From the IMG/VR virus record IMGVR_UViG_3300045988_165978: a stretch of DNA of 49,278 nucleotides; one strand, given 5' to 3'. The position numbers were made by a program, and so were the translations under genes. This DNA comes from a virus. The notes under the pieces were generated by a model that saw only the letters and a list, made by a program, of their open reading frames with translations, had not been told where the DNA came from and made no database searches. Every line of letters starts with the position of its first letter. The stretch's first letter is position 1. Positions 2,037 through 49,278 of the stretch are shown one piece after another.

Positions 2037-2454
2037 TATCTTTCTCCCCCTTCAAGTATCTTTCCAAAGATTCTACTTTCTGCTGCAGGGTTTCAACAGT
2101 ATCCGCATCAGCATATCTTTTCGGAACATCCGGATTTTCTTTTGAAAGTCGATATGTCTGAACAATGGGCAGACCATTCATATTTATTGCTTTTGCATAA
2201 ATACAATTATCTGCAGGACAGATAAAATACGTAAATGTTCCGTCTAAATCTATTTGAGCGGCTTTTACTTCATCAAAGCTCCCTACTGTCCGCCCTTTTA
2301 ATACTGCAGGCATGGCTGGTGTGTTATACTGTGACTGCATCATATTTTGCTGCTGATAGTTTGGCATCGGCTGCATTGGTTGAGGATATTGCACCTGTCG
2401 TTGCTGTTGGCTGGGAAACATATTAACTCCCGGTACATAGAGATTATTAAACAT
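1951..2454 (-). CDS. hypothetical Pro/Gln-rich protein (167 aa)
   Basis: ORF preceded on the minus strand by GGGGGAG ribosome-binding site and a TATATAATA -10 like element (about 2490-2500). Confidence 0.55.
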   Translation of the reverse strand: MFNNLYVPGVNMFPSQQQRQVQYPQPMQPMPNYQQQNMMQSQYNTPAMPAVLKGRTVGSFDEVKAAQIDLDGTFTYFICPADNCIYAKAINMNGLPIVQTYRLSKENPDVPKRYADADTVETLQQKVESLERYLKGEKDNESNAINTDDRANTKQSEPNGNLPANVW

Positions 2455-2574
2455 CTTTTACTCCCCCGTTCTCTTTGATTTACTGTATTATATATAAATT
2501 TTTCTCTCTAAAAAGGACTATAAAAGGACATAAAACAGACAATAAAAAACAGCCCGTTTGGGCTGTCATAAACA

Positions 2575-2742
2575 AAAGCAGTTATCAAGTAATCCTTGAT
2601 AACTGCTTAAATTTTTTATTAATGCCTAACGCCAGGCTTGCAAAATCCATGTCCATATGGTTTTGATTTGATTGAGGAATTCTCACGAACTTGTCTGAGC
2701 GATATATTTAAACTTCGAGGGTCTACTCCACCGGCGTTAGGC
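2575..2742 (-). ncRNA. candidate structured ncRNA (unit 0): minus-strand promoter, 16-bp closing stem ATTAATGCCTAACGCC/GGCGTTAGGCATTAAT, tandem terminators
   Basis: Minus-strand -35 TTGAAA (2778-2773), 18-nt spacer, -10 TAAAAT (2754-2749). Perfect 16-nt inverted repeat at 2616-2631 and 2726-2741. Two hairpin+T-run terminators at 2560-2620. Confidence 0.45.
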
Positions 2743-2833
2743 ATTAATATTTTAGCACATCAATATTTTTATTTTCAATAAACTATGAAAAAAATCTTTA
2801 ACTCAAACACAAGATTTTCTATAAAATTTTCTC

Positions 2834-2990
2834 CTTTTTTTAATTGACTTTTTCTATAAACCAATAGTATAATATCCACCGGGACGACGGTATTGCTGCG
2901 CCGTACTCCTACAATTTTATGTGAGCGTAAGAGAAGTGAACCCCTTTGGTTAGATAATTCTAACGAAAGGGGTTTACTTCTTGAAGAATT
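2834..2990 (+). ncRNA. plus-strand unit U1: consensus promoter (TTGACT-18-TATAAT, 2834-2863) -> about 100-nt transcript -> hairpin CCCCTTTGGTTAGATAATTCTAACGAAAGGGG + T-rich tail
   Basis: Promoter motifs read directly. Hairpin with palindromic loop at 2940-2975. No ORF. Confidence 0.45.
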
Positions 2991-3120
2991 TGACTTTTTC
3001 AATGAACCAATAGTATAATAACTATAAAGAGATAGTCGGTATTGGATCACCGGCTCTCCCCGTAATTAAAAAATTTGACGGAAGGCCGTGTAACCGCAGG
3101 TTATGCGGTTTTTCTCATTT
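2990..3120 (+). ncRNA. plus-strand unit U2: consensus promoter (TTGACT-18-TATAAT, 2990-3019) -> about 90-nt transcript -> terminator ACCGCAGGTTATGCGGTTTTTCTCATTTT
   Basis: Near-identical promoter to U1 (ttgactttttc.a..aaccaatagtataat). GC hairpin + U-run at about 3088-3118. Shares CGGTATTG...CCG...CTCC with U1. Confidence 0.45.
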
Positions 3121-3326
3121 TATTTTCGAAATGAGAGAATGACTACTATAAGAGTTGCAAAACCTATCATTAAAGATAAGGTTTCATAAACAGTCATAGC
3201 ATCACCCCCTACTCTTTTGGAGTAGGAAAACCGATTACCGACTATCTCGAAAATTATTATAGCATAACTAAACATATTTTTAAATAACAGGGAATATACC
3301 CCGGTTATTTCTTTATGATAAGCAAA

Positions 3327-3534
3327 AAGCCCTCTCTGCTTAACAGAAGGGCCTTTTGTATAACGGATGGTGAAAGGATGAAGTACCTAACGCCAGCCAG
3401 CAAAAGAAAACGAGTCGGAGTTGGAGGTTATTGCATGTTGTCAACCGAACAAGAGAAACTATATCTGCTTTCCTAAAAAAGTCAAACTGTTTCTTTAACT
3501 AAACCTGCACCTTTACTAAACTGTCGTTAGGTTC
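3327..3534 (-). ncRNA. candidate structured ncRNA (unit 1): minus-strand promoter TTGAAA-17-TAATAT (3569-3541), closing stem CCUAACGACAG/CUGGCGUUAGG, terminator at 3327-3362
   Basis: Promoter lies in the conserved 70-bp repeat 3533-3605. 5' and 3' arms (3521-3531 and 3386-3398) are complementary 10/11. Hairpin + T-run on the minus strand at 3327-3362. Confidence 0.45.
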
Positions 3535-3653
3535 AAATATATATTAGCACCACTTTTTTAGGTTTTCAATATCCTAAAGCAATACTATTTTTTTATAAAC
3601 TAAAATGAATATCAAAACTAACGACTTTATTTATAACACTCTTATCAATACCA

Positions 3654-3828
3654 AAATCCCTCGTTGCATACGCAACGAGGGATTTTGGTACTTTTGGGCA
3701 AGGATTAAGATTTTGTGCCTAACGTCAGCCTGTAAGGTAAATGAGTGGAGAGTTAGATTTGGGATAACACTATTGCCCGTTGTGGTAGGACATCAATCAT
3801 ACACCTTTACTGAACTGACGCTAGATAC
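3654..3828 (-). ncRNA. candidate structured ncRNA (unit 2): minus-strand promoter TTGAAA-17-TAATAT (3863-3835), closing stem CUAGCGUCAG/CUGACGUUAGG, terminator at 3654-3690
   Basis: Paralogous to unit 1; the 70-bp repeat at 3828-3900 is near-identical to 3533-3605. Arms at 3815-3824 and 3718-3728 pair with one G-U. Perfect 13-bp hairpin AATCCCTCGTTGC-ATA-GCAACGAGGGATT + T-run. Confidence 0.45.
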
Positions 3829-3897
3829 AAATATATATTAGCACCACTTTTTTAGGTTTTCAATATTCTAAAGCAATATTATTTTTTCATAAATTAA

Positions 3898-3935
3898 AGG
3901 AAGCCACTAAAATCAGTGACTTCCTTTTTCATATA
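3898..3935. terminator. bidirectional terminator hairpin (AGGAAGCCACT...AGTGACTTCCT + T-run)
   Basis: Stem with one mismatch, T-runs on both strands. Just downstream of the minus-strand gene 3954..4220. Confidence 0.5.
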
Positions 3936-3953
3936 ATAAGATCAGCAACCTTA

Positions 3954-4220
3954 TTATTTTTGTAATGCTTTTTCACAGTTTTGTTTATTCAGTATTTCGT
4001 GGATCATCCGGTAACTTTTTCGCAGATCCCGTACTACAGTTTTTTCAGATAGCCCGAGACGGTCAGCTATTTCATAATTAAGCAAGTGCCGTATAAACCG
4101 CAGTTCCAGTATTTCCAGCTGGCGCGGGGTCAGCTTTACTTTCTCTATTACTTCCTGAAATTCTTCTTTGGTCGGTATATCGTCCAGTATATGACGAACT
4201 TTCAAGTTTGTACGGTTCAT
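3954..4220 (-). CDS. small sigma-70 region-4-like DNA-binding protein (88 aa), putative late-gene/transcription activator
   Basis: LTPRQLEILELRFIRHLLNYEIADRLGLSEKTVVRDLRKSYRMI matches the sigma-70 region 4 / ECF-type HTH pattern. There is no region 2. Confidence 0.6.
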   Translation of the reverse strand: MNRTNLKVRHILDDIPTKEEFQEVIEKVKLTPRQLEILELRFIRHLLNYEIADRLGLSEKTVVRDLRKSYRMIHEILNKQNCEKALQK

Positions 4221-8549: not shown

Positions 8550-9545
8550 TCATGCATTACCGCAGTTTAGTATAAACGTATCAGAATTCTTCACATAGGA
8601 TGCACCGTCAGACAAGCTTTCAACCTTAGTCTTTGCAATGTTGGTATTAAAGTTTGCCGTCGCCCGTTCATCTGTGTAATATAATTTGCTTCCCTCGGCG
8701 ATATCGCTCGTAGTAAGCGTTACCGCGCCTGTTTTTCCGTTGACAGATAATACTGCTGCTGTTGCGCCTCTTAACTGTATCCAGTTATCTAAGACACTTG
8801 CCGGAGACTGCTTTAAGATAAAGCTTCCAGCTCCGTCTGTTCTAACTGCGACATCACCCGTTTGGGCTTCAAGCGCCAGCATTTCTTCCTCATTGTCTAC
8901 TACATGCGGCTCAGTAATTGCAAGGGCAGGAAGAATAGATTCATCAAGTTTGCCGCTCTCATTCAGCATCGGCACATTACCTGCAGCTGAACCAACATTT
9001 TTAGTTGCCGCTGTGCCGATCCCGGTTATTTTACTCGTAGACAGATTCGGAATATCGCTTTCAGAAAGATTGGTTGCCGTTGTTACCCGTCCTTTGGCAT
9101 CAACCGTAACTTTGGTATATGTACCTGCAGTAACACCGCTGTTTCCCAAATTTGCCTGTATGGCAACGGCTGCACTGCCGTCAAAAGAAGCAGAACCGCT
9201 AACATCACCGGAAAGCGTTATACTTCTGGCCGTTTTCAACTTCGTTGCTGCAGTTACCTCACTTACTGACATCGTACCGTCAGAAGCAACAACGACTTTA
9301 TCTGTTCCGGCAGCCTGAGATTTTACGCCGCCTAAGGTACTTGTCGTAGCAGTAGGAAGATCATATTCATTACTGCTGGCGTAACTCAGCTCCTGCCACT
9401 TTGTTATACCATCACCAAACTTAAATTTTTTAGTGTCGATCTCTACGCCCATTTCACCTTTGGCTAATACTGGATTCTTACTGTTCCAATTTGCCGCCGT
9501 GTCATTTCTCATTTGCAGAGTTTCGACTTTTAATGTTTGCGCCAT
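8550..9545 (-). CDS. tail fibre protein (331 aa) with conserved N-terminal fibre domain
   Basis: N-terminal motif typical of Firmicute prophage tail-fibre N-domains. Ser/Thr/Gly/Ala-rich body. Confidence 0.7.
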   Translation of the reverse strand: MAQTLKVETLQMRNDTAANWNSKNPVLAKGEMGVEIDTKKFKFGDGITKWQELSYASSNEYDLPTATTSTLGGVKSQAAGTDKVVVASDGTMSVSEVTAATKLKTARSITLSGDVSGSASFDGSAAVAIQANLGNSGVTAGTYTKVTVDAKGRVTTATNLSESDIPNLSTSKITGIGTAATKNVGSAAGNVPMLNESGKLDESILPALAITEPHVVDNEEEMLALEAQTGDVAVRTDGAGSFILKQSPASVLDNWIQLRGATAAVLSVNGKTGAVTLTTSDIAEGSKLYYTDERATANFNTNIAKTKVESLSDGASYVKNSDTFILNCGNA

Positions 9546-15202: not shown

Positions 15203-15544
15203 TCACACCTCCGTCAGCTCTAAGGTTATGGTCCAATAATCTAAAGTGCTGAGTTCAACATTACTGACATTGGTTATCCGAACCTCTATTTCTTTATTCG
15301 TCGCAGGATTCGTCCAGGTAAAACTCTGCGCCGAATACTTGACTTTTTTCGTTATAAACTCATAAAGAATCTCATATTCATCTTGCGGCAGAGAATTCCA
15401 TTTCAAAGTATATTTTGCCCTGCTGCGTGTAAATTTGACCCGTGATTGCATACTGCCGTCTTCAAAATTACTACGCAGTGAATTATCCTCTACTTCCATA
15501 CCTATCGGATAACTCGGAGCCCGTATTTCCGGAAACGTGATCAC
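15203..15544 (-). CDS. minor tail protein M-like (113 aa)
   Basis: Size and position immediately after the tape measure (lambda M is 109 aa). Confidence 0.5.
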   Translation of the reverse strand: MITFPEIRAPSYPIGMEVEDNSLRSNFEDGSMQSRVKFTRSRAKYTLKWNSLPQDEYEILYEFITKKVKYSAQSFTWTNPATNKEIEVRITNVSNVELSTLDYWTITLELTEV

Positions 15545-18500
15545 GAATTAGCCACCCCCTTCAAGAGTGTTTTAATACCGCCTCTATTAGTGCTTATAGC
15601 TTTTATAAGTATGCCTATAACATAACTTTCGCCATCCCAAGTAGTTGATGTCTGCCGTGCTTCGAGTGGAGTACCACTTTCATTGATAAGTTCTACTTTG
15701 ATGTTGATATTATTGCTGTCGCTCCGGCTTTCGCCGCTGAACATTGCTTTTGTTTGCGCTGCGGTGTATACCCGCCCCGGCGTGCTAAAATCAACCACTT
15801 CCGGGCCTTCTTCTCCAACCAGATATAGTCCGGGAGAAGAATAACCGCCTTTAGCTCTTGTTCCTCCACCTATCTTTAAAGTGCTGGAAGGTACACTGGA
15901 AACTATGGTCCCGCCAAAATCCTGATATCTTATACCATTAGCAGCCGTTTTTATATTATTGGCGCCACCGATACCGAACATACTCATAATGGCATTCATA
16001 ACCAAACCCTGCATTATGACTTTCATCATCATATTGAGAATGTCGTTAGTAAGGTTTTTAAACAATTCTTTAGATGCCTCGGAGAAAGACTGCTGTTCGG
16101 TGATCATATTCTGACCAAAGCTTTCAAACTCTCCGATAATGCTGTCAAAGCCATCTACATAAGTTTGGTAAAAATCTGCCTGATAGTTTTTTACCACGTC
16201 CAAAGCATTTTCCCATGAAGCCGCCATATCTGAAGCTTGTGCCTCAACAAGATCCTGACTTGCCGCTGCATATTCCTGCTGGATACGAAGCATTTCTTCC
16301 TGCGTCAGCTTATCGCTTTCCAACATCTTCGCTAACTGCTGTTTATAGTTTTCCAGCTCTGCCATACGCATAGCGTCAATATTGCTGTAGTAATCTCCGT
16401 AACTGTCTTCCAACGCCTGCAGGCGTTCCATTTCCATGTTATGACTTTCAGTTACCCAGTCACGATTATTCTGAGCTTCTTTCAGTTCCCGATACTTATT
16501 TATCTTTTCCTGAACAGCACCTATTTCTGCAGCATCTACACCAGCTACTTTTGCCCGTTCAACAGTCGAATTCATTTCTTCGATCTGCGCTTCGAGTTTA
16601 GCTTGTGCTATTTCCAGTGGGGACTGCGTAAGCTCGGCTATATCGACATCCAGATCTTTAGTGAGTTCATCTATTTTAGTTTTCCACTTTGTAAGCTCTT
16701 TCAGTGCCTTGTCTGCCGCCGCTTTAGCCTTCTTATCTTCTTTCTCAGCGGATTTATCGCCAAAATCTTTCAGTGTTAATCTCTTGGCTTCTTCCATTGC
16801 TTCTTTTAATGCCGCATCGGGATCATAAGTCCATTTCGCCGCTTTTACGGCGTTTTCTGTCATAGCCCTCGGATTGAAATAAGGATTTTCTATTAAGTCC
16901 CAATCATCACTTTCACCCTGAGACAAATATTTATTATCTGCTGTGTTCGACAATGCGAGCTCGTATCTATGCAATACATCATCCAGAGATAAACCATTCA
17001 TCCCTGCATAAATACCAACCGTCCCGGCACCAACAGCCAACCCTGTACCTATAGCTGTACCACCAGCAGTACCCAATGTTGTAAGAAGCCCTGCTGCAGC
17101 TCCCATTTTTGCAACTTCTTTATATGCAGTGGACAACTTAGAAAGCCAGCCTATAAGCCCACCAATGGCACTTATTGCAATACCTACATTTATAGCTGTA
17201 TCTCCCATACTTTGTGCAAAATCGTTAGTATCATCCGTAAGCATTTGAACAGTAACACCTAGACCTGTCAATGCACTGCCAGCTCCTAACGCATAATTTT
17301 GCATCTTTTGCAGTTTTTTTCCATGCTCTAATGCTGCATTTGCTGCTAAAATATGTTTTTCCTGAGCATCAAGGGTTTGTCTTGCCAGATCCAGTTGCCC
17401 TTTAGCCGCTTGCCGCGCAGCCTGCAGTTGCAATTTCCCTGCTTCTTGTGCGGATACACCAAGTTTTTGATAATGTACAGCCGCAAGAGCAAGGTCATCT
17501 GCCAACTTCATATTATCTTTGCGCGCCGCCTTAACAACAGCATCACTGACTATTGCGCTTGTTTTTTGTGCTGTCTGTTTTTGGCGTTCAGCCTGTTCGA
17601 TTACCACCGCCGCATTTTTTGCCGCCTGTATCTCCTGCTGATACGCTCCCTGTGCCGCTATTTTATTTTGATTCCAGTAGCCGTTGACCTTCTGTACCGC
17701 CGTACCCAGCAAAGTCTGCGCCTGATATGCATTATTAGTCTGCGTAACTACATTCGCAATATCTAAAGCAACGTTACCAATTTTCCACGCCGCAAAAGCT
17801 ATGCCGACCTCTTTAGTATGATCCGCTAAAAAACCTGCGGCTGTACCGGCTTTTTCCAGAGCGGGAGTAACAATGGTACTAGCCGCACTACCCAGCTCAC
17901 CCATACCTTTTGCAGCGTTAACAACATGTTCGCTAAACGCCTTGATATTATCAACGGTTTCAGAATTCAACTCAAAAGTCTTCTGATTTAAGAACAGTTC
18001 GGCTATATCTTCCAGTATTTCCTTATAATAATCGTATAAGGGTTCCGTAGCTATTGCAGATGTTCTTGTGTAGCCTTCCTTGATTTGATCCGTCAAGCCA
18101 GCCATAGTTTTCGGCGTTTCCAAAGCTGCTGTTTTAAAACCTTCCATACGTTTCATAAGGAAGGCGTACAGACCTTCTGCACTGTTTTTAGCTTCTTTGA
18201 TATCGGCATCTGTAAGCCCCAAAGAGGTTGCCAGCGTACTGGATTGAGGACGGATACCGCCCTGCACCATATCACGTAATTCCTGGACGATCTGATTTCG
18301 GGGCAAACCTAATGATTTTACCGCGTTTACACCAACAGTTGTAAATTCTTTCAGCTGGTCTATCGTCATACCGGCTTCAAGACCTGGTCCCAGCAGGGCC
18401 CGGAATGCTTCAATTAAATCTTCACTGGTTGCAGCTGTTCTTAATGCGGCATCGTTTAAATCTTTTAGGATACCATTAGATATCCGCATTGCTGAATTCC

Positions 18501-18810
18501 ATTCCAGTGTTTTTCCATCCAGTTCAGTCATAGACTGTAATATACCGGATATACCGATTTGATTCGTTTCCATGTTTTTGGCAAACTCATAGGGAGCTTT
18601 TATAAGCTCACCTATAGCTCCGCCTGCAGTATACATACCAGTCAAAGCCGCAGTAACACCAGCCGCCTGCGCAGTAATACCACGAAAAATACTGGATGTA
18701 GAAGAAGCGGTTTTATTCAGATTAGATAAATTTTGTTGAGCTTTTAAAAGCCCTGGACTTAAAAGGTCCGTTAACGCTAACAAAATCCTTGTTTCTATAA
18801 CATTAGCCAC
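15541..18810 (-). CDS. tail tape measure protein (1089 aa)
   Basis: Very long Ala/Gln/Lys-rich coiled-coil protein between the chaperone genes and distal tail genes. Confidence 0.85.
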   Translation of the reverse strand: MANVIETRILLALTDLLSPGLLKAQQNLSNLNKTASSTSSIFRGITAQAAGVTAALTGMYTAGGAIGELIKAPYEFAKNMETNQIGISGILQSMTELDGKTLEWNSAMRISNGILKDLNDAALRTAATSEDLIEAFRALLGPGLEAGMTIDQLKEFTTVGVNAVKSLGLPRNQIVQELRDMVQGGIRPQSSTLATSLGLTDADIKEAKNSAEGLYAFLMKRMEGFKTAALETPKTMAGLTDQIKEGYTRTSAIATEPLYDYYKEILEDIAELFLNQKTFELNSETVDNIKAFSEHVVNAAKGMGELGSAASTIVTPALEKAGTAAGFLADHTKEVGIAFAAWKIGNVALDIANVVTQTNNAYQAQTLLGTAVQKVNGYWNQNKIAAQGAYQQEIQAAKNAAVVIEQAERQKQTAQKTSAIVSDAVVKAARKDNMKLADDLALAAVHYQKLGVSAQEAGKLQLQAARQAAKGQLDLARQTLDAQEKHILAANAALEHGKKLQKMQNYALGAGSALTGLGVTVQMLTDDTNDFAQSMGDTAINVGIAISAIGGLIGWLSKLSTAYKEVAKMGAAAGLLTTLGTAGGTAIGTGLAVGAGTVGIYAGMNGLSLDDVLHRYELALSNTADNKYLSQGESDDWDLIENPYFNPRAMTENAVKAAKWTYDPDAALKEAMEEAKRLTLKDFGDKSAEKEDKKAKAAADKALKELTKWKTKIDELTKDLDVDIAELTQSPLEIAQAKLEAQIEEMNSTVERAKVAGVDAAEIGAVQEKINKYRELKEAQNNRDWVTESHNMEMERLQALEDSYGDYYSNIDAMRMAELENYKQQLAKMLESDKLTQEEMLRIQQEYAAASQDLVEAQASDMAASWENALDVVKNYQADFYQTYVDGFDSIIGEFESFGQNMITEQQSFSEASKELFKNLTNDILNMMMKVIMQGLVMNAIMSMFGIGGANNIKTAANGIRYQDFGGTIVSSVPSSTLKIGGGTRAKGGYSSPGLYLVGEEGPEVVDFSTPGRVYTAAQTKAMFSGESRSDSNNINIKVELINESGTPLEARQTSTTWDGESYVIGILIKAISTNRGGIKTLLKGVANS

Positions 18811-30730: not shown

Positions 30731-31234
30731 ATGTTAAAAATCTATATTGCAAACTTAGGAAAATACAACGAGGGAGAATTGGTGGGTAAATGGGTTGAAT
30801 TGCCCTGCGAAGACTTAGACGAAGTTTTAAAAGAAATTGAAGTTGTAGACGGTACAGCTTACGAAGAATACGCCATACACGATTATGAAAGCGATATTGA
30901 AGGTTTAAATATTGGTGAGTATGATAATATATTCTCACTTAATGAGATAGCCGAAAAATTAAACGAGTTATCAGACTATGATAAAAATTGGTTAGAGGCT
31001 TATTTGGATGCCTCGGGCGAAGACTTGTTAACAGCTTTAGAACAATTCGAGGATAATTCTTATTTCTACAAAGATATGACCTTAGAAGACGTTGCAGAAG
31101 AATTAGTTTCAGAAGGCTGTTTTGGTTATATTCCAGATTCTATAGCAATTTATATTGATTATGCTGCCATTGCAAGAGATTTAGAATGTGATTCTTATTT
31201 TGAAACAAAACAAGGTGTTATTTATCTTTGTTAG
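30731..31234 (+). CDS. ardA: antirestriction protein ArdA (167 aa)
   Basis: N-terminus MLKIYIANLGKYNEGELVGKWVELPC...DYESDIEGLNIGEYDNIFSLNEIAEKLNEL matches the ArdA family closely. Highly acidic. Confidence 0.85.
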   Translation: MLKIYIANLGKYNEGELVGKWVELPCEDLDEVLKEIEVVDGTAYEEYAIHDYESDIEGLNIGEYDNIFSLNEIAEKLNELSDYDKNWLEAYLDASGEDLLTALEQFEDNSYFYKDMTLEDVAEELVSEGCFGYIPDSIAIYIDYAAIARDLECDSYFETKQGVIYLC

Positions 31235-31315
31235 TCGAAACGCTTGCAGTCTGCAAGCGTCAGCCGTGGGATAGCCTCCCGGCTCTGATGATGACAGGCT
31301 AGAAAGGAGATAAAA

Positions 31316-32356: not shown

Positions 32357-32516
32357 CAAAAGTCCGTGCAATCAAAATCGCGTGCAACCAAAAGTCCGTG
32401 CAACGATAAAAGTCCATGCAACCAAAACCGTATGCAATGCCAAAAGTCCGTGCAACCAAAATCATATACAACACCAAAAGTCTGTGCAACCAAAATCACA
32501 TGTAACTATGAAAGTC
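32357..32516. repeat. iteron array: about 10 contiguous 16-17-bp repeats (consensus CAAAAGTCCGTGCAAC / CAAAATCRCRTGCAAC), candidate replication origin
   Basis: Direct repeats with helical-turn periodicity and no spacers. Located immediately downstream of the ArpU-like/RusA/Rep genes. Confidence 0.7.
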
Positions 32517-32913
32517 CTAATCTATCAGCCAGCATTTTACAGATCAAGTCGAGATCTTTATAGAATTTTGCACGACTAACATTTAGACGTGCAATTATCG
32601 TTTTATCCTGCAAGCTTGGTCTATTCAAAAATTTCTCGTTAAATAACAGTAATAGATCCTCGTTCAACGCCGCACGTAAATCATCTATAGCTGCTATTGC
32701 TCTTTCTAAATATTCCTGTCGTAAAAATAACCTTTGCAGTTCCCGGTTTGTTAATTCTGCTTTTCCTGAACACCTAAGATTTTTTATTTGTTCTTGAATA
32801 CGAATTATTTCCATACAGTTTTCTTTATAGTCAGCCAATTCCTGTAGGACAAATTTTTTAGTGCTGTGTTTCATTATCATCCAGCTCCTTTTTATATGCA
32901 ACGACAACTTCAA
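32506..32913 (-). CDS. ArpU-family / sigma-70 region-4-like phage transcriptional regulator (135 aa)
   Basis: C-terminus LNVSRAKFYKDLDLICKMLADRLGL is a sigma-r4-type HTH. Length and architecture resemble the ArpU family. Confidence 0.5.
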   Translation of the reverse strand: MKLSLHIKRSWMIMKHSTKKFVLQELADYKENCMEIIRIQEQIKNLRCSGKAELTNRELQRLFLRQEYLERAIAAIDDLRAALNEDLLLLFNEKFLNRPSLQDKTIIARLNVSRAKFYKDLDLICKMLADRLGLS

Positions 32914-33250
32914 TACGAGGACGTTTTTTGTCTAAGGAGAAATCCATATCACGAATAAGGACGTTTCTATCATTTTCATAGAGGATGTTTTCAAGTGCAT
33001 CAGGCAGGAGCTTATGGAGATTTCCCATATCGTGAGGACGATTATCGGGCCAAAAAGCCCATAGCAGGATAACTATTTTTTCATCTTTTGCAGGATAAAC
33101 CCACCCCTGTTTCCTTTTTGCCTGAGTTGCTTCATATCCAGCAATAAGTTTCCAGTTTTTCGCTGCCTCTGTAAGTCTGCGGCCTTTTCTCGGTACATTT
33201 ACATAACAATGGTTAACACTGGGCGGGATGTCTAATATTATTTTTAACAT
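32858..33250 (-). CDS. rusA: Holliday junction resolvase RusA-like (130 aa)
   Basis: N-terminus PPSVNHCYV.VPRKGRR and C-terminus HDMGNLHKLLPDALENILYENDRNVL match the RusA pattern (D..N..K..DAL...DD). Confidence 0.7.
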   Translation of the reverse strand: MLKIILDIPPSVNHCYVNVPRKGRRLTEAAKNWKLIAGYEATQAKRKQGWVYPAKDEKIVILLWAFWPDNRPHDMGNLHKLLPDALENILYENDRNVLIRDMDFSLDKKRPRIEVVVAYKKELDDNETQH

Positions 33251-33998
33251 ACCTCTTTTTCTCCTTCTGTTTTTTATCAGGTATCTTGATCATTCTGTAA
33301 TACTGATATGGATAGCCAGTGATCTCGCTTACTCCATATTCAATGCTATCAGGAATGATCATATAGCCTTTGGGCGCTTTCGGATACTCCCGCCAGCTGT
33401 CAGCTTTGACTATATTGGTCTCTACTTCCGGTTCTTTTAAGTTTCTCGATGAACACCATCTTTTTTTGAATACAGCTTTTTCAGGATCATTATATGTTTT
33501 TCTAGTTTGTTTTATGAGATAATCAGCAAGTTTTATATAGTCTCCCGAATCATCTAAAACTCTAAGACCTACTCTGCCATGTCCCCATATTTTATTTATT
33601 TCTTCTGGTAGAACTCCACCATTGACTACCATATGAAAATGCATGGATACTTTCCCATACTCAGCAACCGCTATATACTTTAATTCTTTCTCTAACTTTT
33701 TATAGTGCCTTCTCATTCTATCTAAAAACCTTTTCAGGTCATTTCTTGCATCTTCTGGATTAAGTGCTCTTTCTTCCGGTCTATAGGTTAGGATCAAATG
33801 ATAATCACCTGCTGTGAAATTAGCATTGATCTTTCGACGTAAATTTTTAGCAGCGTTACGTTCATTTACTTTTTTCATATTTTCCGGAGTACGGTTTATA
33901 TTAGCCGACCTGGTTATCTTTTTACTGTTAAATTTAGTCGTGTGATATTTTTCTACATCTACTGTCAATCCAGCAAAATATTTCTTTTGTAAATACAT
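33213..33998 (-). CDS. HUH-type rolling-circle replication initiator (Rep), about 261 aa from ATG 33998 (the ORF track extends to 34121)
   Basis: HUH motif MHFHMVVNG. Tyr motif GDYIKLADYLIKQ. The track's first 41 codons look like read-through of non-coding DNA. Confidence 0.55.
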   Translation of the reverse strand: MYLQKKYFAGLTVDVEKYHTTKFNSKKITRSANINRTPENMKKVNERNAAKNLRRKINANFTAGDYHLILTYRPEERALNPEDARNDLKRFLDRMRRHYKKLEKELKYIAVAEYGKVSMHFHMVVNGGVLPEEINKIWGHGRVGLRVLDDSGDYIKLADYLIKQTRKTYNDPEKAVFKKRWCSSRNLKEPEVETNIVKADSWREYPKAPKGYMIIPDSIEYGVSEITGYPYQYYRMIKIPDKKQKEKKRYVKNNIRHPAQC

Positions 33999-34141
33999 GA
34001 TAAAATCCGCCTTAAAATAATAGATTAAATCAAGTCTAAAGGGACCTGGTCCCACAATCAAAAAAACGTATATATAATGGAAGGAATTTTTCAAAGCATT
34101 TAGGCGCATGTCAAAAGACATACGCCATTTACTTATTTTAC

Positions 34142-35830: not shown

Positions 35831-36069
35831 TCAGGGCAATATAGTGTTTCAACTTCTTGTGGATTTTTACCCAAGCTGCATATACTTACATCATCGAATT
35901 CTAAATCTATCCAATGCCCCTGCTTACGTTCTTCTACTGTAGGGGCTTTGTCTATTAAACCTTGAAAAACGTTTAACGCATGAGCAAAACGAAAATCAGC
36001 CTTTGCATAAGCGTTTAACACTTCATTCATTAGTTCCATGCTTAAAGCGTCTTTATCTATTAATTTCAT
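35797..36069 (-). CDS. hypothetical zinc-ribbon protein (90 aa)
   Basis: C-terminus CPECG. Confidence 0.45.
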   Translation of the reverse strand: MKLIDKDALSMELMNEVLNAYAKADFRFAHALNVFQGLIDKAPTVEERKQGHWIDLEFDDVSICSLGKNPQEVETLYCPECGAIMDGVEK

Positions 36070-41305: not shown

Positions 41306-41322
41306 CCTTTCTGATTTTATGG

Positions 41323-41455
41323 TTGAAAATTTTTCAAATTCTGCTATAATATCTTTTGCACGAAGGCGTGCAAGGTTCTCCTATATTTGGTGGGTTTTTA
41401 TTTTTGTTGTGATTTCCCCCATTCGCGGTTAGGTTATTCTAACCGCATCTTTTTT
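41323..41455 (+). ncRNA. plus-strand unit U4: promoter TTGAAA-16-TATAAT (41323-41350; -35 embedded in palindrome TTGAAAATTTTTCAA) -> about 95-nt transcript -> terminator GCGGTTAGGTTATTCTAACCGC + T7
   Basis: Read directly. Hairpin loop GGTTAGGTTATTCTAACC is nearly identical to the hairpin of U1 at 2950-2970 (GGTTAGATAATTCTAAC). Confidence 0.45.
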
Positions 41456-41532
41456 TATATATGGAATTGTTTTTATAGGATCTTTTATAAATAGCATTGG
41501 AGAAATACCAATCAAAATTTTTAAAATCCATA

Positions 41533-41662
41533 TTGAAAATTTTTCAGCTTATGCTATAATAACTTTCGTACGGTCAGTACTCTCGTTTTCTAAATTTTTT
41601 CTCACAATTTTATCCATTCCCTTATGCTGTTAACACACCAACGTTAACAGCTTCTTTTTTTA
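41533..41662 (+). ncRNA. plus-strand unit U5: promoter TTGAAA-16-TATAAT (41533-41560, same palindromic -35) -> about 95-nt transcript -> terminator CTGTTAACACACCAACGTTAACAG + T-run
   Basis: Near-identical promoter to U4. The terminator also ends the minus-strand HTH gene 41660..41839. Confidence 0.45.
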
Positions 41663-46284: not shown

Positions 46285-47292
46285 ATGATTAACAGTATTC
46301 AATATACACAAGATACTCAAGAAGATTTATACAACTTACTTAAAATTTTAAAGTTACCAGTACGAATACTTAATAATAACATGAATTATTGGTTTGTGCG
46401 GACAGAATCTGGCAAATATTATAAAGATTTTTTGTTTAATAGTTATATTGCTGTTGGTTGGAACTATATTAATATTTTATCCAAAGATAACGATGACGAA
46501 AAAACAATAAAACTCATTAAAGAAAAATACCCCGATGCTATACCAGGAAGAGTTCTGAATCCTATTAAACGTTTTTGTCAAGAAATGCAACCCGGTGATT
46601 TAGTTATAATACCAAGTACATCTTCTGCAACTTTTGCTTTTGGTATTATAAAATCTGATCCATATATAGAAACTATAAAAGAACAATATGTTAGTGATGA
46701 TCTTTCAGTATCATGTCCATATATTAAAAGAAGAACCGTTAAATGGTTAAGTTCATTAGAAAGGCATCGGTTAGACCCAAATTTATTTCAATTTTTCCGA
46801 GCACATCAAACCATTTCTAACGCTACCAGATATGCAGATTATATAGACAGAACTTTAAATACATTATACATAAAAAATGATATTGCTCATATAATTTTAG
46901 ACGTATGTACTCAAAAGAATATTCCAGCTAATAAATTGATTAAATTTATTTCAGGATTACTGAACTATTTGAACAAAGTAACAGACGACCCTACCGCTTC
47001 AAATGATATAGATATAAAGCTAAACGTACAATCTCCTGGCATATTAGAATTCATTGGTTCACCTATAAAAATCGCTATTATAGCTCTAATATTTCTTTTC
47101 ATTGTCGGTGGAGAGGCCAAATTTAGTAAGCAGGGATATGATATTGAATTCAGCCTCAAAACTCAGGGCTTAATTGAAAAAGGAATACAATACTATGAAC
47201 GAGTATTAAAAGAAAATATAGATCCTTCTGAACTAAAAGATGAAATTGAACAATTAAAAATAAAAGACCCAACAGGTATACCGCGGGTCTAA
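46285..47292 (+). CDS. AT-rich membrane-anchored protein (335 aa): large cytoplasmic N-domain (NYWFVRTESGKYY...IAVGWNYI...GDLVIIP) + single TM at about 262-280 + short C-tail. Candidate superinfection-exclusion / abortive-infection protein
   Basis: AAAAGGAG ribosome-binding site. Markedly lower GC than neighbours. Located between repressor and integrase on the lysogeny strand. Confidence 0.65.
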   Translation: MINSIQYTQDTQEDLYNLLKILKLPVRILNNNMNYWFVRTESGKYYKDFLFNSYIAVGWNYINILSKDNDDEKTIKLIKEKYPDAIPGRVLNPIKRFCQEMQPGDLVIIPSTSSATFAFGIIKSDPYIETIKEQYVSDDLSVSCPYIKRRTVKWLSSLERHRLDPNLFQFFRAHQTISNATRYADYIDRTLNTLYIKNDIAHIILDVCTQKNIPANKLIKFISGLLNYLNKVTDDPTASNDIDIKLNVQSPGILEFIGSPIKIAIIALIFLFIVGGEAKFSKQGYDIEFSLKTQGLIEKGIQYYERVLKENIDPSELKDEIEQLKIKDPTGIPRV

Positions 47293-47744: not shown

Positions 47745-49278
47745 ATGTCAAATGCCGTTATATACGCCCGCTATTCTTCCGGGCATCAGCGTGAAGAAAG
47801 TATTGAGGGACAGATTAGAGAATGCACAAATTTTGCAAAACGTAATGGCCTAACTATTGTCGAACACTATATAGACAGAGCAATTAGCGCCAAAACCGAT
47901 GATCGTCCGTCATTTCAACAAATGGTAGCTGACAGCAGCAAAAAAACATTTGATACAATCATAGTCTACACATTAGACCGCTTTGCTCGTAATCGCTATG
48001 ACAGTGCTGTTTACAAAGCGAAGTTAAAAAGAAACGGCGTTCGAGTATTATCTGCTAAGGAAAATATCACCAGCGATCCTTCTGGAATTATTCTTGAAAG
48101 CGTTTTGGAAGGTATGGCAGAGTATTATTCGGTAGAGCTTGCACAAAAAGTAAAGCGCGGTATGACAGAAAATGCGTTAGCCTGCCGCTGGGCTTCCGGT
48201 AGAATACCTTTCGGTTACACCATTGATGCCGATAAACATCTTCATCCGGACCCCGCGTTAGTACCTATCGTTCAAGAAGCTTTTGAAATGTACGCCGCCG
48301 GGGCTAAAATAGTCGATATCGCAAGAAAAATCAACAGTTATCATGTCGTCACTGGTATGGGTAATAAATTCGGTCGTTCCAGCTTTGACCGGATGATAAG
48401 ATCAGAAACTTATATCGGTGTATTTAAGTGGAACGATATCAGAAAAGAAAATGCTATACCGCCAATTATCACGCCAGAACTTTTTTATAAATGCCAGGCT
48501 AGATATAATGCCCGCAACAGAAAAAATGTGGCTCGCCCCTCGGCTATTTACCTTTTGTCAGGAAAACTACGCTGTGGATGCTGCGGTGGAAGCATGTGTG
48601 GCATGAGTGGCAAAAGCAGAAACGGTACTATGCATTATTATTATTCTTGTTATTCAACTCGCCGCCGGACTTCCCATTGTGATATAGGAAATATACGTCG
48701 TGATGAAATTGAACATATTATTGCAGCACACGCCGCTTCCATTTTGAAAAAACCAATAAATTTAGACATTATTGCTAATCAAGCTTTAAAAACTAATAAC
48801 AGCGTAAAAAACTATCGTTTAGAAAGCCTGATTCAACAAGAAAAAGACCTTACCCAGAAACTAGAAAACTGCATGAAGGCTATTGATCAAGGTTTGGTAT
48901 CTATTACTTTAATGGATCGGATCAAACAATATGAAGCTGACTTACAATCAGTCAAAAATGATATCTCTCTTGAAAAAATAAAATCTAATCCAATCCAAGT
49001 TACCAAAGAACATATTATTTTCTTTTTAGAAAAATTTGCACTCCTAGAAGGTGAAAAATTTAAGGATCGTATCATTTCCACAATGGTAAGAGATATCGTA
49101 ATAAAAAAAGAAAAAGACGGCAACTATTTAGTCACCGTCCAATATAATTATGCGAATTCCAAAGAACTTCCTAACGAAGAAAGCTATTCTGTTCCTGAAT
49201 CTATTGGTTCGCAAGATGTTGAGTTGGTGGACAATAGCGGAGTCGTTACGAACAGACTGAGGTTTTACCCGTATTATT
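47745..49278 (+). CDS. large serine recombinase (integrase), 511 codons in window, continues across the circular junction to stop at 88-90
   Basis: N-terminus MSNAVIYARYSSGHQREESIEGQ (catalytic Ser in YARYSS), resolvase domain, recombinase domain, Cys-rich zinc ribbon (CGCCGGSMCG...C..C), coiled-coil C-terminus. GGAG ribosome-binding site. Confidence 0.85.
   Translation, partial: MSNAVIYARYSSGHQREESIEGQIRECTNFAKRNGLTIVEHYIDRAISAKTDDRPSFQQMVADSSKKTFDTIIVYTLDRFARNRYDSAVYKAKLKRNGVRVLSAKENITSDPSGIILESVLEGMAEYYSVELAQKVKRGMTENALACRWASGRIPFGYTIDADKHLHPDPALVPIVQEAFEMYAAGAKIVDIARKINSYHVVTGMGNKFGRSSFDRMIRSETYIGVFKWNDIRKENAIPPIITPELFYKCQARYNARNRKNVARPSAIYLLSGKLRCGCCGGSMCGMSGKSRNGTMHYYYSCYSTRRRTSHCDIGNIRRDEIEHIIAAHAASILKKPINLDIIANQALKTNNSVKNYRLESLIQQEKDLTQKLENCMKAIDQGLVSITLMDRIKQYEADLQSVKNDISLEKIKSNPIQVTKEHIIFFLEKFALLEGEKFKDRIISTMVRDIVIKKEKDGNYLVTVQYNYANSKELPNEESYSVPESIGSQDVELVDNSGVVTNRLRFYPYY
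49224..49278. repeat. terminal direct repeat, identical to 1-55
   Basis: See feature 1..55. Confidence 0.9.

Follow-up and report, generated by a model that had tools for sequence, protein, structure and literature searches.

Regulatory RNAs of phages have been well studied in enterobacteria and scarcely in gut anaerobes such as the Negativicutes. AgvB/AsxR, DicF and IsrK are prophage-encoded accessory small RNAs (sRNAs). RsaE/RoxS are C-rich-seed sRNAs of Gram-positive bacteria. The bsrG/SR4 and txpA/RatA loci of Bacillus prophages are type I toxin-antitoxin loci whose genes overlap at their 3' ends; type I toxin mRNAs also use pairing between their 5' and 3' parts. The Pas sRNAs of pathogenic Escherichia coli, likewise prophage-encoded and accessory, are reported to form diverging paralogs of variable copy number (bioRxiv 10.64898/2026.05.13.724894). 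Described here are three related units, designated units 2, 1 and 0, encoded on the minus strand between positions 3863 and 2545 of IMG/VR virus record IMGVR_UViG_3300045988_165978 (49,278 nt in full, here the window). The units are probably genuine structured sRNA genes. If they are, the balance tips slightly towards a role as base-pairing regulators. Taken as a whole, the reading favoured here is put forward tentatively: the three units would be accessory ('moron') sRNAs, paralogous to one another, each transcribed on its own and acting by base-pairing.

The units resemble the Pas-type prophage sRNAs in three respects: each is a small RNA gene complete from promoter to terminator within the accessory region of a temperate phage, there are paralogous copies, and both copy number and sequence vary between related phages. 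They differ from them in the Negativicute host, in a long closing helix of conserved sequence that joins the 5' and 3' parts, in the lack of any sequence or Rfam relationship, and in being known from sequence alone. With RsaE/RoxS they have in common unpaired C/U-rich motifs (CCUCC, CUCC, AUCCUU) followed by a terminator, which could mask Shine-Dalgarno sequences. The architecture is different and no Rfam match links them, so that the likeness is one of function alone. A module of the kind found in bsrG/SR4, txpA/RatA and Listeria rli28, with a Hol_Tox peptide, a convergent sRNA and 5'/3' complementarity, lies next to the units at 3284-3026; unlike such loci, units 0-2 contain no toxin gene, and none of the three is antisense to a toxin. 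A covariance-model comparison, suggested in a preliminary description of the window, placed no Rfam family over the units at the gathering threshold. The Rfam 15 scan of the whole window at that threshold gave Hammerhead_II at 31233-31303 and nothing else. When 2400-4000 and the lineage B interval (L073, 4270-5740) were scanned by E-value, the units gave sub-threshold matches only, mostly to terminator hairpins. The literature search gave nothing on Phascolarctobacterium phage sRNAs. The units are outside every described family; the kind to which they belong, phage-borne accessory sRNAs, is already known.

All units have a common layout: an extended -10 sigma70-type promoter, a 5' arm (CYUARCGNCRG), an interior of 82-129 nt, a complementary 3' arm (CUGRCGUUAGG), a linker, and then either a single terminator or two. 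The 5' arm begins a few bases past the predicted transcription start in each unit. Interiors are 86 nt (unit 2), 124 nt (unit 1) and 95 nt (unit 0) in length. The sigma70-like promoters of the preliminary description were recovered at 3863-3835, 3569-3541 and 2778-2749, each with an upstream TG, and a hairpin was found downstream of every unit, as had been proposed for the terminators. The recurrence of the arm motif was also borne out: the two-arm pattern is matched three times in the genome and not once in 100 shuffles (0.00 expected). The 3' arm motif has five occurrences in 49 kb, all within these arms, against 0.68 expected.

Unit 2 extends over 3863-3640. Its promoter (3863-3835) is TTGAAA-17-TAATAT with a TG-extended -10, and the predicted start is at about 3828. 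The helix domain (3825-3718) comprises the 5' arm at 3825-3815 (UCUAGCGUCAG), the interior, and the 3' arm at 3728-3718 (CUGACGUUAGG). Within the interior lies a conserved C-rich stretch at 3762-3746 (CCAAAUCUAACUCUCCA), a 17-nt run identical between lineages. The linker (3717-3691) includes UAAUCCUUGCCCAA and leads into a perfect 19-bp terminator hairpin at 3690-3649 (element 3717-3640 with the linker). Unit 1 extends over 3569-3288. Its promoter (3569-3541) is also TTGAAA-17-TAATAT, TG-extended, is kept in lineage B, and has a predicted start at about 3534. The helix domain (3531-3386) has the 5' arm at 3531-3521 (CCUAACGACAG), an interior with apical hairpins, and the 3' arm at 3396-3386 (CUGGCGUUAGG). 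The linker (3385-3357) contains an invariant 21-nt stretch, UUCAUCCUUUCACCAUCCGUU, at 3382-3362. A terminator hairpin at 3356-3322 is followed by a second terminator-like hairpin at 3303-3288. Unit 0 extends over 2778-2545. Its promoter (2778-2749) is TTGAAA-18-TAAAAT, TG-extended, with a predicted start at about 2744. The helix domain (2745-2621) consists of the 5' arm at 2745-2731, a weakly structured interior, and the 3' arm at 2635-2621; a conserved 21-nt stretch, AAAUCAAAACCAUAUGGACAU, lies at 2669-2649. The linker and the tandem terminators (2608-2576 and 2567-2548) occupy 2620-2545. The conserved stretches of the units include UUCAUCCUUUCACCAUCC, UAAUCCUUGCCCAA, CCAAAUCUAACUCUCC and AAAACCAUAUGGACAU.

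Several details of the preliminary description need correction. The perfect stem given as 16 bp for unit 0 is a perfect inverted repeat, as claimed, of 17 nt (2617-2633 / 2733-2749), with its outer bases in the -10/discriminator region. The arms of units 1 and 2 are complementary with exceptions: unit 1 forms 10 of 11 pairs, with an A.G mismatch at the N position, and the pairing in unit 2 includes G.U pairs. The argument that the arms differ between paralogs and yet stay complementary amounts to essentially one position (C-G, U-A and A.G in the three units) and is weak in that form; real support from covariation comes from orthologs in related phages. The promoter block that units 1 and 2 were said to have in common over 70 near-identical bp is indeed common to both. 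It is longer, 104 nt at 88% identity (3501-3604 vs 3795-3898), and takes in the promoter together with the initial ~30 nt of the transcript.

Relatives were collected as contigs encoding the sigma-like protein P0006 (4220-3954, minus strand) and by a pattern scan of metagenomes, which gave ~27 contigs with 18 distinct unit cores. Three lineages are distinguished: A, like the window; B, ~75% identical to it over the interval; and C, a third lineage used for unit 0. No match to the units was found among INPHARED phage genomes in near or distant search modes. Searches of IMG/VR with the arm pattern, the 5' motif and the neighbouring protein gave two near-identical contigs and otherwise chance matches. 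The pattern scan of 185,579 GTDB species genomes gave 8 chance matches in unrelated genomes (0.48-0.69 GC) and none in Phascolarctobacterium. Across these searches of phage, metagenome and species genomes the family is confined to one phage lineage. Unit 2 is missing from genomes of the L001/L086/L102 type.

Four-fold degenerate sites of five flanking genes, 77% identical between A and B, served as the neutral yardstick. Interiors are 66-76% identical, so their drift is roughly neutral. Full promoter windows are 83-97% identical (unit 0, 97%); within them the -35 and -10 hexamers and the TG are unchanged in all seven combinations of lineage and unit (A, B, C), and the spacers vary; the unit 0 promoter is also found in lineage C. 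Arms are 75-100% identical (3' arms 92-100%, 5' arms 75-87%). Among the longest runs identical between A and B are the unit 1 3' arm with the 21-nt linker stretch, the 21-nt stretch of unit 0, a 20-nt unit 1 apical hairpin, and the 17-nt C-rich stretch of unit 2. Terminator sequences diverge between lineages and retain their pairing, with three compensatory pairs in the unit 2 terminator. Unit 0 has a different, single terminator at the same site in lineages B and C; the terminator has thus been swapped and termination retained. No gene was called in the interval in lineage B loci. Small open reading frames inside the units do not keep their frame between lineages, and those of units 0 and 2 differ in frame and length. 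The units thus show two features expected of a free-standing sRNA gene: a predicted promoter and intrinsic terminator of their own, kept in relatives, and no conserved coding potential.

Folds of the full units gave z = -7.0, -2.7 and -8.6 for the three units. In consensus folding of orthologs the closing helix comprises 22 pairs for unit 1, against 17 for unit 2 and 15 for unit 0. In the unit 2 helix domain (ortholog alignment A5) there are 30 pairs with 3 compensatory changes, one of them U-A to C-G at the arm N position, 5 one-sided changes and 1 broken cell; 99.7% of cells are paired, against 31-48% in slid controls. In the unit 1 helix domain (alignment A6) there are 54 pairs with 2 compensatory changes, ~10 one-sided changes (all to or from G.U) and 3 broken cells; 99.4% of cells are paired, and the slid controls for units 1 and 2 span 31-55%. 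The 15-bp closing helix of unit 0 is kept in A, B and C, where its first pair is A-U, G.U and G-C; its interior has indels among relatives. The structured-RNA reading had been staked beforehand on related phages, and these retain both the arms and their complementarity.

Since consensus folding favours high pair counts, a second test was run across lineages. The structure was predicted from one lineage, and the pairs broken by the substitutions of the other were compared with those broken by randomly relocated substitutions. Unit 1 gave P ~0.001-0.002 in both directions and unit 0 gave P = 0.004 and 0.05. Unit 2 gave P = 0.016 and, from A to B, P = 0.52, because its inner pairs shift register between the lineages. 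For units 1 and 2 the minimum free energy of the minus-strand RNA is better than that of the complement by 9-16 kcal/mol (unit 2, ~9). This strand specificity is due to G.U pairs and indicates a minus-strand RNA, not double-stranded DNA sites. Comparison among relatives thus shows the gene-like anatomy, the conservation of promoter, helix and terminator, the strand-specific helices and the absence of conserved open reading frames.

The following course is proposed. Transcription of each unit would start on the minus strand at its own extended -10 sigma70-type promoter and end at one intrinsic terminator or two. The RNA would be ~185-215 nt long, and the terminators would make each unit an insulated transcription unit. 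The first 11-22 nt would pair with a segment 80-130 nt downstream, with the closing helix within a few bases of the 5' end. The helix would presumably protect the 5' end and organise the RNA. The working parts would be conserved unpaired C/U-rich stretches, namely the linkers between helix and terminator in units 1 and 2 (AUCCUUUCACC, AAUCCUUGCCC) and the apical CCAAAUCUAACUCUCC, which may pair with Shine-Dalgarno/start-codon regions of target mRNAs and repress translation. A candidate target is the adjacent gene of the sigma-like regulator (start 4220); host targets are equally possible. The invariant linker of unit 1, 5'-UUCAUCCUUUCACC, is complementary with one mismatch to GGUGAAACGAUGAA at 4229-4216, the Shine-Dalgarno/ribosome-binding site and start codon of that gene. 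With the full linker the site ranks first of 216 candidate sites. With the 21-nt seed it ranks second of 216, and 1 of 2000 shuffled seeds is equally good. The pairing is kept in lineage B, where the 21-nt linker stretch is unchanged. That the sigma-like gene is the true target of unit 1 is nonetheless doubtful: the seed is a generic anti-ribosome-binding-site sequence and a site at 36069 scores slightly better, so the gene is treated as a lead only. If the target is real, unit 1 would belong to the circuit by which the phage controls its own gene expression.

The following points weigh against the favoured reading, in addition to the generic seed. The inner pairs of unit 2 shift register from A to B, with the P value given above. 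Unit 0 shows neither strand asymmetry nor a structured interior. Interiors trimmed by 15 nt per side are no more stable than shuffles, so the secure structure is the closing helix and some apical hairpins of unit 1. Two to three lineages provide few independent covariation events, and the shuffle controls for units 1 and 2 take no account of relatedness. In the phage genome no targets were found for the conserved stretches other than the unit 1 linker, those of units 2 and 0 included. Elsewhere in the genome, perfect antisense matches of 12-16 nt occur about as often as expected by chance, and no complementary match of at least 14 nt was found between the units and the genome outside 2500-3900, the region excluded from that search. 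Predictions of full-length RNA-RNA duplexes among the RNAs of the island were too permissive for interpretation. Unit 0 and the second plus-strand sRNA are complementary over 8-9 nt, but this match is not kept in lineage B and was dropped. Finally, the arm sequence is conserved across paralogs beyond the need of 5'-end protection, which hints at a sequence-specific partner.

This last point, unexplained by end protection, keeps alive an alternative in which the RNAs act through a protein. The closing helix (GCCUAACGYCRG / CYGRCGUUAGGC) would then be a handle or processing site for an RNA-binding protein or RNase III, and the interior a payload (decoy, sponge or guide). The sequence of the arms, and not their pairing alone, is kept across three paralogs with otherwise unalignable interiors; the interiors drift about neutrally while helix and promoter are held; and the signal of stability lies wholly in the helix. 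Against these stand the lack of a partner candidate, as the neighbouring proteins have no unit-linked RNA-binding, nuclease or defence-family match, the persistence of the neighbouring genes without units in distant relatives, and the conserved single-stranded C/U-rich stretches, which fit a base-pairing seed at least equally well. An action through protein is considered improbable. Still less probable is its extension to a new kind of phage RNA, in which the conserved helix would be the protein handle and the interior, at or above neutral divergence and swapped between copies, a variable payload employed as guide, decoy or sponge where phage and host, or two phages, are in conflict. The units, the neighbouring toxin-antitoxin genes and the variation in antitoxin copies would then make up an RNA-only accessory island.

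A cis-acting role is very unlikely. The units would then be leaders, attenuators or insulators that tune transcription into the toxin gene or into the gene of a 167-amino-acid protein (2454-1951) downstream of unit 0. The order of promoter, structured leader, terminator and gene at unit 0 resembles attenuators and type III toxin-antitoxin loci, and tandem terminators insulate neighbours. However, units 2 and 1 precede another promoter and not an open reading frame. Between the terminators of unit 0 and the 167-amino-acid gene stands an invariant block of 42 nt that includes a separate -10-like element and ribosome-binding site. Homologs of this gene in distant relatives lack unit 0, and at the level of sequence its protein has no ToxN-like match and none to defence families (PADLOC), Pfam or solved structures (PDB). 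A type III toxin-antitoxin (ToxIN-like) assignment was rejected on the same two grounds and because unit 0 is not a tandem repeat.

The region between units 1 and 0 is occupied by further genes; the gene-free 1.5 kb of the preliminary description thus does not hold, as the region contains a 25-amino-acid Hol_Tox open reading frame and two plus-strand antitoxin-like sRNA genes. The predicted type I toxin gene (3284-3120, minus strand), which is outside the unit family, has a promoter at 3284-3256, a 5' untranslated region, and the small open reading frame at 3197-3120 (MTVYETLSLMIGFATLIVVILSFRK). The peptide matches Pfam Hol_Tox PF16935 (E=1.9e-9) and is kept in both lineage B and lineage C, as well as in a distant relative. 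Rfam matches of the toxin region to rli28/BsrG are weak and sub-threshold. The two plus-strand genes lie at 2844-3124, with near-consensus promoters at 2844-2873 and 2990-3019 (TTGACT-18-TATAAT) and, after each promoter, a terminator hairpin (2932-2981 and 3080-3114). In the core of the module (3284-3026) the toxin reading frame is opposed by a convergent plus-strand sRNA (~3026-3124). A perfect 13-nt complementarity (3029-3041 / 3236-3248) would pair the 5' untranslated region of the toxin transcript with its own distal 3' region. The sRNA at 2844-2985 is paralogous to the antitoxin-like sRNA; a 48-nt promoter block is duplicated between the two, and no toxin lies opposite the paralog. Relatives have one, two or three copies of the plus-strand sRNA module (L002, L076), with junctions within the promoter repeat. 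By its predicted elements the whole makes up a type I toxin-antitoxin module plus one additional antitoxin-like sRNA.

The proximity of this module raises the question whether the units are relics or members of type I loci, as decayed toxin mRNAs or as antitoxins to toxins elsewhere. The toxin transcript region has a like design, with the 13-nt complementarity noted above. No unit, however, contains a hydrophobic or conserved small open reading frame; no extended complementarity to the toxin mRNA or elsewhere in the genome was found in a search that covered the genome outside 2500-3900; and the distant relative L130 carries the Hol_Tox module without any unit. The units were not accepted as type I antitoxins or toxin mRNAs on these grounds, the module having sRNAs of its own, and such an origin is highly improbable. 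An equally slight chance is given to the units being non-functional duplicated DNA, that is, promoter-bearing repeats with fortuitous hairpins. The roughly neutral drift of the interiors and the limitation to one phage lineage would suit it; promoter hexamers, arms, linker and terminator pairing are held against ~23% neutral divergence, compensatory changes are present, and terminators have been swapped, not lost.

The least probable explanation is that the inverted repeats act as DNA, as recombination sites of invertible segments (the alternative offered in the preliminary description), as sites like integron attC, or as ends of a miniature transposable element. Like attC, the units have imperfect inverted repeats (RYYYAAC...GTTRRRY) flanking a variable 60-140-nt centre; six of seven variants fit the core consensus by eye (GCCTAAC/GTTAGGC, ACCTAAC/GTTAGGT and similar), the lineage A unit 2 being ATCTAGC, and unit copy number varies, as seen for unit 2. 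This explanation was set aside because the ~60 unit instances from ~27 contigs are all colinear with no inverted interior (assemblies show the majority orientation, and rare inversion is possible), gain and loss junctions lie not at the arms but inside the 104-nt promoter repeat, as in homologous recombination, or, in L088/L089, at an arbitrary deletion, the conserved G.U pairs are specific to one RNA strand, being A.C mismatches on the other and irrelevant to double-stranded DNA sites, the helices are continuous without the extrahelical bases or unpaired spacer of attC, a promoter stands at the 5' arm and a terminator past the 3' arm, the species genomes gave chance matches only, and among the proteins scanned none was recognisable as an integron integrase or as another recombinase.

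The protein scan covered 33 proteins, including the neighbours on both sides and every open reading frame of at least 250 amino acids except the presumed tape-measure gene (15541-18810). Two further candidate systems were rejected. A retron msr-msd would have inverted repeats, as here; no reverse transcriptase was found among the 33 proteins. A diversity-generating retroelement was considered for the tail protein at 8550-9545 (minus strand), which has an Mtd_N (major tropism determinant) domain; neither a reverse transcriptase nor a template/variable repeat pair was found. No protein in the scan was recognisable as an integrase, whereas distant relatives encode a tyrosine integrase downstream of the DUF7841 gene.

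The first 55 positions of the window are identical to 49224-49278 (repeat search). The window is thus an entire phage genome of 49,223 bp, circular or terminally redundant, without host flanks. The phage is lambda-like, with a gpA-type terminase, a gpJ-type tail tip, and a combined head-protease protein and portal. A relative 93% identical to P0006 is recorded at NCBI as 'ECF-type sigma factor [Phascolarctobacterium faecium]', and the related phage contigs that encode the sigma-like protein are all from human-gut assemblies, from which the host is taken to be a human-gut Negativicute. The phage is temperate and infects the gut bacterium Phascolarctobacterium. The unit region lies 3' of the tail and lysis genes and is flanked by the sigma-like gene and by a conserved four-gene block (2454-124). 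In more distant Phascolarctobacterium prophages (L128, L134, 1342-4000), accessory genes for proteins (Bro-N/ANT and others) fill the slot flanked by the sigma-like gene and by the homolog of the 167-amino-acid gene. L130 (3537-4000) has only a Hol_Tox toxin-antitoxin module there, downstream of a 2166-amino-acid MuF_C/ART-PolyVal protein. Since protein-coding genes occupy the same slot in distant relatives, it is a variable cargo space, and the cargo here would be RNA genes. In L087 (3247-6246) sulfatase-type genes follow directly after the sigma-like gene; a prophage boundary, a deletion or a chimeric assembly is possible there.

At least five predicted sRNA genes and a type I toxin lie within 1.4 kb of this phage. 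The three units are a defined family, with predicted ends, helix and seed, for the study of RNA-based regulation by temperate phages of the human gut, whether of themselves or of the host. A second small-RNA island lies at 41306-41660 (plus strand), in a 350-bp gap between early genes. It contains two candidate units without an Rfam match. A near-consensus promoter, TTGAAAATTTTTCA..TGCTATAAT, is duplicated at 41323 and 41533. Each unit has a C/U-rich stretch and then a strong terminator (hairpins near 41424-41447 and 41625-41650).

Other features of the genome were noted. An ArdA antirestriction gene is present at 30731-31234 on the plus strand (Pfam, E=6.5e-35). The Hammerhead_II match mentioned above, a type II hammerhead ribozyme, lies directly 3' of it (46.4 bits, above the gathering score). 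The region of both (30731-31303) is AT-rich, with reversed GC skew. A 335-amino-acid protein encoded at 46285-47292 (plus strand) has no Pfam match and corresponds to the PADLOC candidate defence family PDC-S02 (E=3e-24) and to phrog_10226. Five iteron-like repeats with 34-nt spacing occupy 32357-32517, ~0.7 kb from a Rep-like gene (33213-34121). Between them are a RusA gene (32858-33250) and an uncharacterised open reading frame (32506-32913) that overlaps the end of the repeats. The repeats are probably the replication origin.

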